Origin: Escherichia phage Esco_phi_B-01
Reading direction: 5' to 3' (one strand)
Sequence record: OP292222.1
DNA: 64,000 nt
The notes under the pieces were generated by a model. The model was not told the DNA's origin. It ran no database searches and was given only the letters and a program-made list of their open reading frames with translations. Positions 52,742-57,752 of the stretch are shown here, in pieces. Both the position numbers and the translations under genes were made by a program. Numbering within the stretch: position 1 is the stretch's first letter; each line of letters starts with the position of its first letter.

Positions 52742-53677
52742 TTATCCAATTAAAATAGGTGTTGGTGGGTCGAGCAAATCTAATTCTTCGCGAAGACGTT
52801 CTTTTTCTAAACGAGCTTCTTCAATCAATCGAATGCCGTCTACAGTGGTTCCGCCGGCTAATTGCATACCTTGGTGTTTGGCTAAAATATTACCATTGAC
52901 CTCTTTAACTAATGCCGTAGCGTAATCTTTGACCCAACGGTTATTATACGCGCCATCTTGTAGTCCAAGGTCCTCACCAGCTCTCATTCCAGAAATTCGA
53001 CGCGCAGGATTGTCCCAAATAGCCCCAGGACTCCATTCATTTTCGTCACAGCCACCAGAAGCATATCCATATCCTGCTGTATTCCCAACCATGGAATCAA
53101 CGCCATTAAATGAACGGGTATAAACTTCAATTACAATAAAGTCGCCTTTAACAAAGTTGCCCATTACCTTCAATTGTTCAGTGGCATCATTATACCAATA
53201 ATCAGGCAGCGGAACCAAAAGGTCCTGCATCATAGAACGATATTGCATTAATTGTGTAAAATAGCCAAGGTCGGCGCCGAAGGCATTAGGTCCAAAACTA
53301 TTACATGAAGACCCAAGACCACCATTAATACCTGCCAAACCTAGTACAAAATCTGTAAACCATGGATAAGTTGCTTGCCCGTCCATAGATGTTAAAGAGC
53401 CAACGTTAGTTCTCAAAATTTGTGTTACTGCAAATATATTACGTCCTTTAAGGTCGAATACGCCATTACGGAATTTTTCTTCATCGTCATGGCCAATATA
53501 AAAAGCCTGATAACCTTTGTTATACCCGTTATAATGGTATTCGCCGTAGAGCTCCAGGGCGCGCTGGATGCAATCGTATACTTGGTCAGTAGTTACTTCA
53601 ATATTTGTAATCGGTGCACCCAGGCGGCGCAGAATAGCGTCCTTGAGTTGCTTAGGGTTATATGATTCACTTGCCAT
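52742..53677 (-). CDS. 13: gp13 neck protein
   Basis: 311 aa; size and position as T4 gp13. Confidence 0.8.
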
Positions 53678-53698
53678 GTTTTATTCCTCTAATAACCG

Positions 53699-53706
53699 TA
53701 TTTATA
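53699..53706 (-). promoter_or_regulatory. late promoter for gene 13
   Basis: Minus-strand TATAAATA just downstream of the wac terminator. Confidence 0.6.
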
Positions 53707-53710
53707 GCAA

Positions 53711-53731
53711 AAAAAGGGCCGAAGCCCTTTT
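53711..53731 (-). terminator. terminator after wac
   Basis: AGGGC-CGAA-GCCCT hairpin flanked by AAAAA and TTTTATT, right after the wac stop. Confidence 0.75.
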
Positions 53732-53732
53732 A

Positions 53733-56216
53733 TTATGGTGCTGAGTTTAAAGTCACAAAATCAGACAATAATACCCATGCGTTATCAACCAGAACATACG
53801 GAAGTCCATCTGCGGCAGGAGCCACCGGTGGACGTTTAGATAATTCTGTTTCTAAGGCTGTAATTTTACCTTCGGCAGCGGTTAAACGGGTTCCTAAGTC
53901 AGCAACTTTATCAGATTCAACTTTAACATCATCCAAACCTGTTTCAAGAGTACCAACTTTACCTTCGACCGTGCCTAAACGGGTATTAATACCTGCTACC
54001 TTATCGGATTCGACTTTAACAGCAGCTAAACCTGTTTCAAGAGTACCAACTTCACCTTCAACAGCGGTTAAACCAGACTCAAGGGTAGTTATTTTACCTT
54101 CTGCCGTAGTTATTTTACCTTCAGCCGTACCTAAACGGGTATTGATTCCTGCCACTTTGTCAGATTCAACTTTAACTGCTGCTAAACCAGACTCAAGGGT
54201 AGTTATTTTGCCTTCAGCTGTACCTAATCGAGTATCAATTCCTTCTACTTTATCGGATTCAACTTTAACATCATCCAAACCTGTTTCAAGGGTAGTTACA
54301 CGAGTTGTTAAAGGAGCTATTTTAGCAGTATCAACTTTAACTGCAGCCAAATCAGACTGAAGGGTAGTTATTTTACCTTCAGCTGTGGTCACACGAGTTG
54401 TTAAAGGAGCTATTTTAGCGGTATCTAATTTAATATCAGTAATTTCGCCTTCATTAGCTGCTACTCGCCCGGTTAAAGTAACGATATCACCTTTATTCTT
54501 GGTTATATCGGCTTTAATAGGGGTTAATTGTGATTCTATAGAACTCACATCTAAAGCCAAAGCCGTAACATCAGAATCGGTTGTATCCGTCTTGGTTTCC
54601 AATGCGGTTATTTTGCCATTAATAGTTACGTCACTTTCTTCCAAAGCAGTAATACGATTATCTTGCTCGGTGTCTTTGGATTTTAGCAAAACGACATCTG
54701 CTTTAATTTCTCCTACCGAAGTGTTTAAAGCACCAGTTCTAGTATCAAGAGAAGAAATGGAGGCGTCATTAGTATCGACTCTGGAAGTTAAAGCGGTCAC
54801 TTTACCATTGGTAACAACCAAATCGGCTTTAACAGTTTCTATTTCTGTGGAATTATTAACAACTTCGGCCCATGCCGCATTTCGACGTGCATAGAGTTTA
54901 CCATCAGAAGGCGCGTCACCTAATTTACCTTGCATCTGGGTTTCTAAAGAAGTAACCGCATTAATAAGACCACGTTCTTCTACGGTAGCTCCGTTAGGGT
55001 TCGTTCCGTCAACCTTATTTGTGAGCTTAAGCAAAGTACCTTTTATACCGGATTGGTTGTTACCAATTTCTACCTGAATATCCTGGATGGACGAGGTAGA
55101 TTGGTTTGCTTGAATAATAACATCATTCAAACGCTTATTAATTGTGCCAGCAGCAGGAGACACTTCACTACCAAGGCGTCGATTAATATCGGAAACCTGG
55201 AAACGAAGCCCTTCACTAGAACTATTACCAACAACGGTTTTTAAATCATTTACATCAGTACGAAGCCCACTTAAACGTCCATTAATAGATGCTGGTGCAG
55301 ACTCAGAACCGATTTGAGTTTCTATAGAAGTTACTCTAGGTTTTAAATCATCATTAACCGAATTTTCTAAGGTAAAGGTTTTGCTTTCTAAAGTAGTTAC
55401 TCGGTCCTTTATAGGCATACCAGAGAAATCAATATTATCCTTAATTTCGTCAATAGCTGTATTAAAATTAACTGCAGCCGTTTCTAATACTGAAATTCGG
55501 GTATATGCAGGTTGTTTACCTACCGTATCAGAATGTGGTCCTAATTCGGCGCGAATTTCATTTAATTTAATACCCAATTGTCCAACATCAGAATCTTCAT
55601 AGTTTCTTTCAAGGGTATCAATACGAAGACGATGGTCCACCAATTCAGTGGTATTATCCATGATGCGGCGTTTTATACCAGTGGCTTCGCTAGTTTCACC
55701 CGGAGGTAAAGGATTGCCGTTTATATCCTGGTCCTCATAGTGACCAATTTCATTTTTAAGAAGAACAATATTTTCACGTACAGTTAAATATGGGCCGTCT
55801 TGTAAAGGGTCATGATATCCAACATCTTCACGCAAGAAATCAAAATTGGTTGTTAAGGTGTCCAATTTTTCTGTTGTATCTTCGGTGACTTTTTTAAGGT
55901 CTACAATATCAACACGGTTTTTCTCTATTTGTTGAATGATGGAAATATCTGTTGACATTTCTAAAGCGTCATTGATATTATTAACGTTTTCTATAAGCTC
56001 ATTAACTTTATCAGCAGTTTTTAAATCGTTGGCATCAAGAGCTTCTACGTTTTTCTGAACTCCTAAAGCAGCAGCGTTCAAATTACCTTCATTGCCGTAT
56101 TTTGTTTTTGCTGCAGACATACAATCACCCTCGCGTATCCATTGGATACGCTTTTGAGGAGCATCAGGTACGCCGTCAACAAATGGTAACTCACTAAGTT
56201 CCAATTTGTTAATCAT
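53733..56216 (-). CDS. wac: fibritin (whisker antigen control), repeat-expanded
   Basis: 827 aa; heptad coiled-coil repeats; C-terminal foldon-like sequence DGLPYVLVDNAWVLLSDFV as in T4 fibritin. Confidence 0.85.
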   Translation of the reverse strand: MINKLELSELPFVDGVPDAPQKRIQWIREGDCMSAAKTKYGNEGNLNAAALGVQKNVEALDANDLKTADKVNELIENVNNINDALEMSTDISIIQQIEKNRVDIVDLKKVTEDTTEKLDTLTTNFDFLREDVGYHDPLQDGPYLTVRENIVLLKNEIGHYEDQDINGNPLPPGETSEATGIKRRIMDNTTELVDHRLRIDTLERNYEDSDVGQLGIKLNEIRAELGPHSDTVGKQPAYTRISVLETAAVNFNTAIDEIKDNIDFSGMPIKDRVTTLESKTFTLENSVNDDLKPRVTSIETQIGSESAPASINGRLSGLRTDVNDLKTVVGNSSSEGLRFQVSDINRRLGSEVSPAAGTINKRLNDVIIQANQSTSSIQDIQVEIGNNQSGIKGTLLKLTNKVDGTNPNGATVEERGLINAVTSLETQMQGKLGDAPSDGKLYARRNAAWAEVVNNSTEIETVKADLVVTNGKVTALTSRVDTNDASISSLDTRTGALNTSVGEIKADVVLLKSKDTEQDNRITALEESDVTINGKITALETKTDTTDSDVTALALDVSSIESQLTPIKADITKNKGDIVTLTGRVAANEGEITDIKLDTAKIAPLTTRVTTAEGKITTLQSDLAAVKVDTAKIAPLTTRVTTLETGLDDVKVESDKVEGIDTRLGTAEGKITTLESGLAAVKVESDKVAGINTRLGTAEGKITTAEGKITTLESGLTAVEGEVGTLETGLAAVKVESDKVAGINTRLGTVEGKVGTLETGLDDVKVESDKVADLGTRLTAAEGKITALETELSKRPPVAPAADGLPYVLVDNAWVLLSDFVTLNSAP
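53830..54500 (-). repeat. intragenic tandem repeats in wac (coiled-coil expansion)
   Basis: Imperfect tandem repeats visible in DNA and protein (repeated KVESDKVAGINTRLGTAEGKITTLE-like units); boundaries approximate. Confidence 0.6.
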
Positions 56217-56225
56217 TTTTTACCC

Positions 56226-57752
56226 TTATTCTACTTTAATAATAAAAAGAACGGACATTGTCCAAGGACGTGTTTCATTTGCAATAAGTCCTTCACTATT
56301 CAGTGTGGTATGGCCGTCACGGTTCCAAGGTTCAGTGGTCTCAAAACCTTCGTTAGTATAATAACTACGGTTATCCCAGTCAAGTCCTTTACGAGTACCG
56401 ACATATCCAGAGTTAGCAGTGTTACCAAAAGCGCCATAGTTATCATGTTCACCAAAACCACCAGCATGTTTATGATAACGTAATGCTTGGGCTTGAACAG
56501 AAGATTGCGGGAACGAACCTACACCGTTACCTAAACGGGCTTTACCTTTACCGTCTTCTCCTCGGTTACCTGCAATATGTGGGTTAACTTCACCTTCAGA
56601 ATATCCACCAACCATGTTAGCACCACGAGGATATAATCCACGGAAATCTGGAATAGCACCCCACCATCCCCAACGTCCACCGACAGCATTTAAATATGCA
56701 CCACCGGTATAAGTTCCACCTACACAAGCTCGCCATTTGCCTGGGATATTACCTTCATGTCCACCCCACATACAAATAGTACCTACAGGAACGCTATCTG
56801 ATAATTGGTCATGGGTAACAACATCAACACCATTACGACGTAATGCGCCATTAACGTTTAAAGTACCCCATATTTCACCGCCCGAAGTAGAAATAACGTT
56901 AGCATTATAAGCCAGGGCCGTATTACCATCGCCTTGACCTACTGTAGTAGTTAAACGCACTAAGCCAATTCGTCCTGTATTACCTGTACGAGCTAGCAAA
57001 GATGCCGGAGTAACAGCGGCAGTATGGTCAGTACCATTAGATACCATATCCCAACCTGCGAGTTTAATAATACCGCTTCGTTCTTCGGTGGAAGTTAATG
57101 TGGCCAATCCCGCTGGAGAAATAGCAATACCTATAGAAAGATTTCCATTACCAACTTCAGCATTAGTCGCTAAACGAACTAAACCTTCATTTGTAGTCGT
57201 TGCCGTAGAATAAACCGGTAACGCCGCTGTCGCTGCACCAATTGCTTGCGATACTTTAAGTGGGGTCATCGCCGTGGTATCGTCGGTACCAGCTAATGCA
57301 GCAGGTGTAGTTGAAATCTTGATAACGCCTGTAGTGTTCTCTGTTGATAAACGGTTCTCAAATGTATAATCCATTACCGCTTTCAAAGAGGTTGCTACGA
57401 TTGCAGCCTGGGGCTCTGTGCCTGCTATAGCTTCAGCGTTAGTAGCATAACGGGTAATACCTACATAAGTTTCTGTTGCCTGAGTAGGAATATCTAAACG
57501 TGCTTTTAAAGTTGCAGGGGTCACTGCACTATAGGCATCCAACCCATCCATTACTTCTTGTGTTGTGGCAAGACGAATAATACCTTGGGATGTTTCTGTG
57601 GCTGAAGGAACATTACCTGTGACACCGATTAATGAAATAGCCGCCAATGCTTCTTGAACATTAGTAATATCAGGTGGGAAATTCGACCCAGTAGGGTCGA
57701 ATGATTTGAATTCCGATTTATCACTAATGTGTTTTAGTGTGTTTGTTGACAT
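56226..57752 (-). CDS. 12: gp12 short tail fiber
   Basis: 508 aa; position between wac and gp11 as in T4. Confidence 0.8.
   Translation of the reverse strand: MSTNTLKHISDKSEFKSFDPTGSNFPPDITNVQEALAAISLIGVTGNVPSATETSQGIIRLATTQEVMDGLDAYSAVTPATLKARLDIPTQATETYVGITRYATNAEAIAGTEPQAAIVATSLKAVMDYTFENRLSTENTTGVIKISTTPAALAGTDDTTAMTPLKVSQAIGAATAALPVYSTATTTNEGLVRLATNAEVGNGNLSIGIAISPAGLATLTSTEERSGIIKLAGWDMVSNGTDHTAAVTPASLLARTGNTGRIGLVRLTTTVGQGDGNTALAYNANVISTSGGEIWGTLNVNGALRRNGVDVVTHDQLSDSVPVGTICMWGGHEGNIPGKWRACVGGTYTGGAYLNAVGGRWGWWGAIPDFRGLYPRGANMVGGYSEGEVNPHIAGNRGEDGKGKARLGNGVGSFPQSSVQAQALRYHKHAGGFGEHDNYGAFGNTANSGYVGTRKGLDWDNRSYYTNEGFETTEPWNRDGHTTLNSEGLIANETRPWTMSVLFIIKVE

Follow-up and report, generated by a model that had tools for sequence, protein, structure and literature searches.

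The analysed window, a stretch of 64,000 nucleotides from Escherichia phage Esco_phi_B-01 (OP292222.1), carries the wac gene for fibritin (neck whisker or collar fibre) at 53733..56216 on the minus strand. An earlier sequence-only reading had given exactly these coordinates, and the ORF list showed an ORF of 827 aa plus stop codon. The product matched PHROG 1056 "fibritin neck whisker" with an E-value of 1.7e-198 and Pfam Fibritin_C with an E-value of 1e-28 (profile positions 2-92 of 93, the match ending at aa 454). A single phmmer alignment showed that residues 4-430 of T4 fibritin (2bsg) were colinear with residues 5-428 of the window protein (E 5.7e-73). wac lies between genes 12 and 13 and is flanked by homologues of gp11, gp12, gp13 and gp14 on the same strand, and the order gene 12, wac, gene 13 is likewise annotated in phages JS98, JS10, UP19 and QL01. 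Going by the gene order of T4, the long-tail-fibre genes 34-37 presumably fall outside the window. As had been noted, the protein exceeds T4 fibritin (487 aa) by about 340 aa. It is built of two modules, the first comprising aa 1-455 and the second a C-terminal add-on of 372 aa (aa 456-827).

Module 1 begins with an N-terminal neck-attachment domain (about aa 1-50; 56067..56216, minus strand), which was identified from T4 fragment matches and invariant residues. The N-terminal fragments 1ox3 and 2ibl of T4 fibritin matched aa 6-68 (E 2e-13), and P11, P17, Q21, R23, I24, W26, T38, G41, G44 and N47 were among the residues invariant in 37 aligned fibritins. The neck-binding role of the fibritin N-terminus is taken from the T4 literature (PMC3797505). 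The domain is followed by a segmented coiled-coil shaft (aa 51-429; 54930..56066, minus strand), colinear with the shaft of T4 fibritin, for which AlphaFold2 predicted a series of helices with short loop breaks, from helix 46-89 through helix 417-431.

The signature of the T4 foldon comprises (E/D)-A-P, D-G, the equivalents of Tyr469, Arg471 and Trp476, and a beta-hairpin. An internal foldon-like motif, foldon 1, was located at aa 430-455 (GKLGDAPSDGKLYARRNAAWAEVVNN; 54852..54929, minus strand) from the end of the profile match, the similarity to the T4 foldon and the alignment. Comparison with the T4 foldon gave a z of 9.2, with a score reached by 0 of 2000 shuffles. Foldon 1 holds all tested signature residues (D434, A435, P436, D438, G439, Y442, R444 and W449), of which A435, P436, D438, Y442, R444 and W449 were invariant in 37/37 sequences. 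A beta-hairpin was predicted at 442-445/448-451 with low pLDDT; the AlphaFold2 model was a full-length monomer with a pTM of 0.20 and a pLDDT of 50-60 at foldon 1, and only its secondary structure was used. Fibritins of 455-459 aa terminate exactly at this motif, and MAFFT placed the terminal foldons of T4-type proteins on it. Judged from these alignments, foldon 1 is the ancestral fibritin end, and the positional homologue of the T4 foldon is internal here.

Module 2 starts with a non-repeated part of the coiled-coil spacer (aa 456-595, 140 aa; 54432..54851, minus strand), recognised from a hydrophobic period of 3.50 in constant phase and from helices predicted by AlphaFold2 at 457-541 and 557-592, with helical prediction over 457-792 overall. 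This part measured 140 aa in the window and in 12 of 12 retrieved relatives of 718-799 aa. The rest of the spacer is a tandem array of a 31-aa (93-nt) unit with the consensus KVESDKVAGINTRLGTAEGKITTLETGLAAV (aa 596-795, 200 aa; 53832..54431, minus strand), which was defined with Tandem Repeats Finder, repeat families and the protein layout. The array is made up of six units of 31, 24, 31, 52, 31 and 31 aa, with 62-86% nucleotide identity to one another. Tandem Repeats Finder reported a period of 93 at 53868-54073 and 54106-54298, and a second repeat search produced 5-copy families with a spacing of 93/156 nt (families D1-D4), in agreement with this period. Self-identity of the array at lag 93 was 0.607, compared with a best lag in 1000 codon shuffles of 0.383 on average (sd 0.011, maximum 0.427). 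No DNA periodicity was found in the rest of wac outside the array, where the best lags (0.35-0.38) were within the shuffle range. In addition, unit 4 contains a micro-duplication of 21 nt (7 aa, AEGKITT; protein TAEGKITTAEGKITT) at 54085..54129 on the minus strand, reported by Tandem Repeats Finder with a period of 21, 2.1 copies and 95% matches. The 31-residue unit equals four heptads plus three residues, and the hydrophobic period of the array was 3.45, matching 31/9 (3.44), compared with 3.50 in the non-repeated spacer. A 31/9 periodicity would make the array a natural coiled coil with one stammer per repeat. Imperfect tandem coiled-coil repeats had been claimed at 53830-54500, which is close to the array found here, but the array covers only 200 of the 372 aa of the add-on. 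Three features had been missed in that reading, namely that only 200 aa are tandem, that a second foldon-like motif lies at aa 430-455, and that close relatives are also long.

The protein ends with a terminal foldon-like motif, foldon 2 (796-822), and a tail (together aa 796-827, PPVAPAADGLPYVLVDNAWVLLSDFVTLNSAP; 53736..53831, minus strand). The foldon-like C-terminus, already pointed out from the sequence, was confirmed by similarity to the T4 foldon with a z of 11.8 and a score reached by 0 of 2000 shuffles. The last helix with foldon 2 aligned with T4 residues 430-487 (z 12.6) and with the protein's own helix and foldon 1 (z 6.1; a score reached by 1 of 2000 shuffles). AlphaFold2 predicted a beta-hairpin at 807-810/813-816, so that the model has two predicted hairpins with about 340 helical residues between them. 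Both foldon motifs were found by regular expression in 16/16 closest relatives, and in the window at aa 435-449 and 800-814; foldon 2 was almost invariant across JS98-type relatives. In the T4 foldon trimer, the intersubunit pair Glu461-Arg471 is important. Equivalents of this pair were absent from foldon 2, where V798 and L809 occupy the sites aligned with T4 E461 and R471, and therefore the trimer interface must differ in detail. Foldon 2 also has a one-residue insertion before D-G, while AP, DG, Y, W and VLLS-F are retained. With the pair absent, one residue inserted and the remaining motif kept, foldon 2 is classed as a divergent form of the foldon and not as a canonical one.

Two long plus-strand ORFs, 53662-54360 (232 aa) and 54385-54894 (169 aa), lie antisense at 53662..54894 in the ORF list. 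Both occupy one antisense frame, which is poor in stops along the whole of wac (12 stops compared with 43 and 71). The observed stop-free antisense run was 208 codons; codon-shuffled wac gave 170 ± 53, and 19% of the shuffles reached 208. Among the relatives examined, the stop-free run in this frame ranged from 142 to 358 codons. That the two are real overlapping genes is scarcely credible: they are long and the frame is open in UP19, JS98 and JS10 (293-358 codons), but a Pfam search of both products returned no match, the RefSeq annotation showed no gene there, the whole-gene stop-poor frame and the run length agree with the shuffles, and the run varies between relatives. The antisense ORFs were judged to be by-products of the codon composition of wac. 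Such ORFs had been attributed to the repeats; they exist, but the repeats are not their cause, as the frame is stop-poor gene-wide and codon shuffles reproduce the runs. Finally, an intrinsic-terminator-like hairpin, AAAAGGGC-TTCG-GCCCTTTT followed by a T run, was found at 53709..53731 on the minus strand, where it overlaps the wac stop codon by its final base (1 site in the terminator scan compared with 0.1 expected). A candidate late promoter, TATAAATA, lies at 53699..53706 on the minus strand, with the start codon of gene 13 following 21 nt downstream, and fits the T4 late-promoter consensus.

An add-on after residue 455 was found in most of the retrieved Dhakavirus relatives, with protein lengths of 652-827 aa. 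The other long forms retrieved were of 652-799 aa and were exceeded by the window protein by 28-175 aa. In the forms of 718-827 aa, all length differences were inside the array (e.g. 720, 734, 751, 768 and 799 aa). Overall, fibritin sizes in the relatives formed a series of 509, 515, 529, 541-567, 652 and 718-827 aa, and the module after foldon 1 ranged from 60 to 372 aa. The 827-aa allele was the longest retrieved and also occurs in the unannotated record PQ561418, which has an identical 827-aa layout and 84 nucleotide differences, scattered over the length of the gene. Global alignment of wac from the window and from phage UP19 showed 98.3% identity and one gap, a segment of 279 nt (3 × 93) at 54102..54380 on the minus strand that is present in the window and absent from UP19. 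The borders of this indel are a 21-nt exact direct repeat (54081-54101 = 54360-54380). The expectation that gain or loss of repeats alters protein length was borne out between relatives, both by the UP19 indel and by the forms of 720-799 aa, which differ only in the array. A length typical of close relatives, or a lack of internal repetition, had been named as evidence that would count against the sequence-only reading; long forms are indeed typical (JS98, 751 aa), while the internal repetition is real. A neighbour-joining tree of aa 1-428 placed two short forms, Bp7 (529 aa) and fDHCT2 (515 aa), among the long forms, which points to lability of module 2; the tree carried no support values, and intragenic recombination could produce the same picture as repeated loss. 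The short form of QL01 was compared by protein layout, as its terminal module was misplaced in the MAFFT global DNA alignment.

With a probability of about 0.88, the ORF encodes a JS98-type fibritin of a Dhakavirus, a T4-like coliphage, in which a complete fibritin module is followed by a second coiled coil/foldon module and the length variation is driven by the array. By analogy, the 827-aa protein would form a trimeric collar or whisker fibre. The expansion had originally been described as internal, which corresponds to a T4-like fibritin with a shaft lengthened by tandem coiled-coil duplication before a single C-terminal foldon. In its favour, the terminal foldon is directly preceded by the 31-aa repeats, in numbers that differ from one relative to another. 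However, the T4 shaft (4-430) matches 5-428 one-to-one with no inserted repeats, the foldon at 430-455, with its invariant residues, represents the ancestral terminus, where the fibritins of 455-459 aa finish, and 140 aa of the extra sequence are non-repeated. All of the extra length lies after the foldon at 430-455, and internal lengthening is very unlikely.

It is improbable that module 2 is a separate appendage derived from fusion with another trimeric fibre gene of a tail-needle-like kind, rather than from self-duplication. Residues 499-668 match P22-family gp26 (4lin, E 5e-8; PHROG 1219, E 2e-15) and Pfam DUF7310, but these matches are limited to low-complexity trimeric coiled coil, for which tropomyosin, sigma-1 and crescentin score too. 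The similarity of the last helix and foldon 2 to the protein's own helix and foldon 1 and to T4 430-487 fits an internal duplication, and the graded size series from 509 to 827 aa also argues against a fusion. Internal duplication was proposed as the origin of the JS98-type fibritin in PMC3797505. As for the sequence itself, short reads can mis-assemble tandem arrays, and UP19, the nearest relative with full annotation, lacks exactly three units, which would favour an artefactual repeat number and a true gene like the alleles of 720-751 aa. However, with only 62-86% identity between units most of the 93-nt units are unique, the reading frame is intact, and PQ561418 is an independent GenBank record with identical layout and 84 nucleotide differences. 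The 827-aa length is therefore probably no assembly artefact, and we regard an artefact as a highly improbable explanation.

T4 fibritin forms trimeric whiskers and a collar on the virion and aids long-tail-fibre attachment and retraction. By analogy with T4, the terminal foldon of the two-module fibritin would nucleate and register trimerisation, with the coiled coil zipping towards the N-terminus. The conserved foldon 1 is probably a second registration clamp; alternatives are a relic hinge or a fibre that folds back on itself. Provided that module 2 forms a straight coiled coil, the whisker would gain about 50 nm and become roughly twice as long, with about 4.6 nm contributed by each 31-aa unit. 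Comparison with relatives shows that whole or partial units are gained or lost in frame, by homology-driven unequal recombination or replication slippage, because the units are of 93 nt (3 × 31 codons) and have identical runs of about 20 nt in common. Bigger deletions between the related motifs may remove most of module 2 and produce the forms of 515-529 aa. From homology, the protein presumably retains T4-like roles in helping the attachment of long tail fibres and holding the fibres retracted. A more far-reaching proposal, that the 93-nt array acts as a contingency-like length ruler in which frequent in-frame gain and loss of units tunes the reach of the distal foldon in Dhakavirus populations, is doubtful. 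If true, long-tail-fibre retraction or sensing could change, or the distal half of the whisker could have a function absent in T4, with ancestral fibre binding left to the internal foldon.

The finding is of little importance beyond annotation. It indicates that a gene for a fibritin of about 720-830 aa in a JS98-like phage is intact, neither a fusion nor an error, and that isolates differ in length by 31-residue units, whole or partial. The series of 515-827 aa offers a natural test set for the effect of whisker length on tail-fibre deployment, and users of foldon trimerisation tags might be interested in foldon 2, which has Val/Leu where the T4 foldon has the Glu/Arg pair.

Among known systems, the P22-family tail needle gp26 (4lin, 3c9i, 2poh) and the reovirus sigma-1 tail match aa 499-668 with E-values of 5e-8 to 6e-3. 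They resemble the window protein as trimeric parallel coiled-coil fibres with heptads rich in Thr, Ala, Val, Glu and Lys, and differ from fibritin in virion location and in both terminal domains. Only the coiled coil is similar, probably through its composition, and the window protein is not assigned to these families. Homology to gp26, DUF7310, tropomyosin and sigma-1 was rejected, and these matches were treated as compositional coiled-coil similarity. The single-foldon fibritins of 455-459 aa (e.g. Pectobacterium phage PM2, P0028) showed 47-49% identity over aa 1-455; their terminal foldon is exactly at the position of foldon 1, with nothing after residue 455. T4 fibritin (487 aa; PDB 2bsg, 3j2o, 1aa0, 1avy, 1ox3) has a homologous colinear N-terminus and shaft, a foldon and the same neighbourhood of 11, 12, wac, 13 and 14. 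However, T4 fibritin has a single foldon, which follows one additional helix (430-457), and lacks module 2, whereas the window protein has a foldon at 430-455, then a 340-aa coiled coil and a second foldon.

The JS98-type fibritin (gpwac of Escherichia phage JS98 / JS98C3) is reportedly the subject of Latypov et al. 2007. JS98 is of the same genus and its fibritin gene has the same position, with 92% nucleotide identity over aligned columns and 91% protein identity to the window. Both proteins have the N-terminal domain, the shaft, two foldon-like motifs and a length-variable coiled-coil spacer. The window protein (827 aa) differs from that of JS98 (751 aa) by two extra array stretches of 72 and 156 nt, and aa 456-595 represent a different allele, with 77.6% nucleotide identity compared with 98.5% for aa 1-455. 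No literature on Dhakavirus fibritin was found, and nothing on JS98 wac or fibritin tandem repeats beyond PMC3797505, which makes no mention of a tandem-repeat basis for the variation in spacer length and in which the word "repeat" does not appear. The same source reports that JS98 fibritin trimerises on its own, and describes the JS98-type fibritin as a protein with a pair of foldon-like motifs and a coiled-coil spacer that varies in length (Letarov & Krisch 2013). The two-foldon, variable-spacer architecture is already known for JS98-type fibritin, and the observation in the window is real but ordinary because this architecture was previously described for the JS98-like phage group.

The wac gene was found in the ORF list on the minus strand at 53733–56216, and its 827-aa product gave an E-value of 1.7e-198 with PHROG 1056 ('fibritin neck whisker') and of 1e-28 with Pfam Fibritin_C, in agreement with the sequence-only reading. 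Upstream lie homologues of T4 gp11 and gp12 and downstream those of gp13 and gp14, each encoded on the strand that carries wac. Megablast assigned wac to the JS98 group, genus Dhakavirus, with nucleotide identities of 96.6% to PQ561418 (phage Ec2-ASingh, a record without annotation), 97.7% to UP19 and ~93% to JS98, in which the counterpart is annotated as wac. The gene 12 stop and the wac ATG are only 9 nt apart (56217–56225), and AAGGGTAAAAAATG, which spans the gene 12 stop (TAA), is a putative ribosome-binding site for wac; gene 12 and wac are probably co-transcribed. Directly after the wac stop codon lies a UUCG-looped hairpin that resembles a terminator, with its T run (53709–53731, minus strand), followed before gene 13 by TATAAATA (53699–53706, minus strand), a match to the T4 late-promoter consensus, and by a Shine-Dalgarno-like AGAGGA ahead of the gene 13 ATG at 53677. 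In the short-tail-fibre protein (gene 12 homologue, 56226–57752), the N-terminal half matched tail-fibre PHROGs repeatedly, three stretches with phrog_972 and three with phrog_15547; this indicates a motif repeated within the protein, as is the case for T4 gp12 and gp34.

The 827-aa protein is a complete fibritin (aa 1–455) with a C-terminal add-on of coiled coil and a second foldon. Residues 5–428 were colinear with residues 4–430 of T4 fibritin (E = 6e-73), and the Fibritin_C profile was exhausted at residue 454, not at the protein C-terminus. Residues 430–455 (GKLGDAPSDGKLYARRNAAWAEVVNN) form a foldon-like motif, foldon 1, which the sequence-only reading had overlooked, with a z-score of 9.2 against the T4 foldon and a score reached by none of 2000 shuffles. 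Fibritins of 455–459 aa, such as that of Pectobacterium phage PM2, terminate exactly at this position, and an alignment of 37 sequences put the T4-type proteins' terminal foldons onto the internal foldon 1, with A435, P436, D438, Y442, R444 and W449 invariant. The real C-terminus carries the foldon-like sequence already noticed (foldon 2, aa 796–822, PPVAPAADGLPYVLVDNAWVLLSDF; z 11.8 against the T4 foldon), which together with its preceding helix aligned with the protein's own helix-plus-foldon-1 segment (z 6.1). AlphaFold2 was run on the monomer and, with a pTM of 0.20, only the secondary structure was usable; it predicted segmented helices to residue 431, a hairpin at 442–451, helices over most of 457–792 with short breaks near 541–556, 592–598 and 624–630, and a second hairpin at 807–816. 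An internal expansion of the T4 shaft, as had been proposed, is contradicted by this order, since foldon 1 stands at the shaft end and the coiled coil and foldon 2 come after it.

The E461–R471 pair is important for trimerisation of the T4 foldon. Foldon 2 carries V798 and L809 at these positions and is thus a divergent foldon; the change looks like a paired swap of a salt bridge for a hydrophobic contact. This variant was nearly invariant in dozens of Escherichia and Yersinia phage fibritins, and a one-residue insertion ahead of Asp-Gly was also seen in this region (aa 796–827, 53736–53831). A distant 1016-aa metagenomic fibritin homologue, P0058, had at least four foldon-like (DUF2793-like) motifs of the pattern D/E-A-P-x-D-G-x-x-Y-x-R-x-x-G-x-W scattered along a long non-coiled C-terminal region, and foldon 1 gave a weak match to PDB entry 8rk3, a DUF2793 protein (E = 0.08). 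Phage fibres seem to reuse the foldon motif widely as a module.

Within the add-on, the imperfect tandem repeats noticed earlier were recovered at aa 596–795 (nt 53832–54431) as six units of 31, 24, 31, 52, 31 and 31 aa with the consensus KVESDKVAGINTRLGTAEGKITTLETGLAAV and 62–86% nucleotide identity between units. Tandem Repeats Finder gave a 93-nt period at 53868–54298 and a 21-nt micro-duplication at 54085–54129, and a second repeat search found families of up to five copies inside the array at 93/156-nt spacing. The lag-93 self-identity was 0.607, above the best lags of all 1000 codon shuffles (mean 0.383, sd 0.011, max 0.427), and other 600-nt stretches of wac gave best lags of only 0.35–0.38; this establishes a genuine repeat, well beyond chance expectation and limited to these 600 nt. 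The hydrophobic period of the array was 3.45 (31/9), or four heptads plus three residues per unit, while that of aa 456–595 was exactly 3.50 with constant phase. The long plus-strand ORFs had also been put down to the repeats, and this was rejected. Both ORFs, for which no Pfam match was found, fall in a single antisense frame with few stops over the entire gene (12, against 43 and 71 for the remaining frames), and codon-shuffled wac gave stop-free runs of 170 ± 53 codons, with 19% of shuffles reaching the observed 208. The ORFs are by-products of wac codon composition.

Relatives from a large protein database and a phage collection showed long forms of 652, 718, 720 (IME540, dhabil), 734 (UP19), 737, 749, 751 (JS98, NC-G), 768 (VR5, EcWhh-1) and 799 aa (JS10), and short forms of 515 (fDHCT2) and 529 aa (Bp7, QL01, WG01). 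The suggestion of an unusual length for the group did not hold given the 652–799-aa forms, although 827 aa was the greatest length retrieved, found otherwise in PQ561418 only. An assembly artefact is made less likely by PQ561418, whose unit layout was identical although the two genes differ at 84 nt and 19 aa. All 718–827-aa forms had the 140-aa non-repeated segment in common and differed within the array only, in steps of 31 aa or of smaller, heptad-related sizes (7, 14, 17 and 24 aa), so length polymorphism by repeats was borne out. The wac genes of the window and UP19 were 98.3% identical and differed by one 279-nt (3 × 93) gap at 54102–54380, flanked by an exact direct repeat of 21 nt (54081–54101 and 54360–54380), the signature expected when units are gained or lost through homology. 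In a neighbour-joining tree of aa 1–428, built without support values, short Dhakavirus forms were nested among long ones, and in other clades single-foldon (455–459 aa) and double-foldon (509–567 aa) proteins were interleaved; the add-on was thus gained, lost or exchanged repeatedly, with the caveat of recombination. A mosaic was also seen, with 98.5% nucleotide identity to JS98 over aa 1–455 (54852–56216) vs only 77.6% over aa 456–595 (54432–54851), where UP19 was 100% identical to the window; differences from PQ561418 clustered at CDS nt 1400–1600. This pattern suggests that recombination, breaking close to foldon 1, has exchanged two spacer alleles.

The domain order, the array with its periodicity and the copy-number differences at repeat homologies are direct observations. 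By analogy with T4 (PMC3797505), the fibre would be a parallel trimer anchored at the neck by its N-terminus, with trimerisation nucleated by a foldon, and its distal part would touch the long tail fibre near its knee, where contact would aid fibre attachment and keep the fibres retracted. With a rise of ~0.15 nm for each residue, the fibre would gain ~50 nm from the 340-aa coiled coil, or ~4.6 nm from every unit. Foldon 1 is conserved, which suggests that it still folds; it may serve as a registration clamp or as the ancestral fibre-binding site.

Overall, the observation of a repeat-bearing fibritin was confirmed and its interpretation partly supported: the repeats and length polymorphism stood, while internal expansion, unusual length and the antisense cause did not. 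The 31-aa/93-nt unit with 31/9 periodicity, the exact indel junction against UP19 and the longest allele retrieved are new in a descriptive sense, and the repeat unit may already be covered in Latypov 2007. The feature itself was known, as Letarov & Krisch 2013 (PMC3797505) defined the 'JS98-type' fibritin with two foldon-like motifs and a coiled-coil spacer that varies in length, reported that JS98 fibritin trimerises unaided and proposed that one deletion or duplication links the T4 and JS98 types; architecture and length polymorphism are therefore not new. The two-foldon architecture is common to the JS98-type and the window fibritin.
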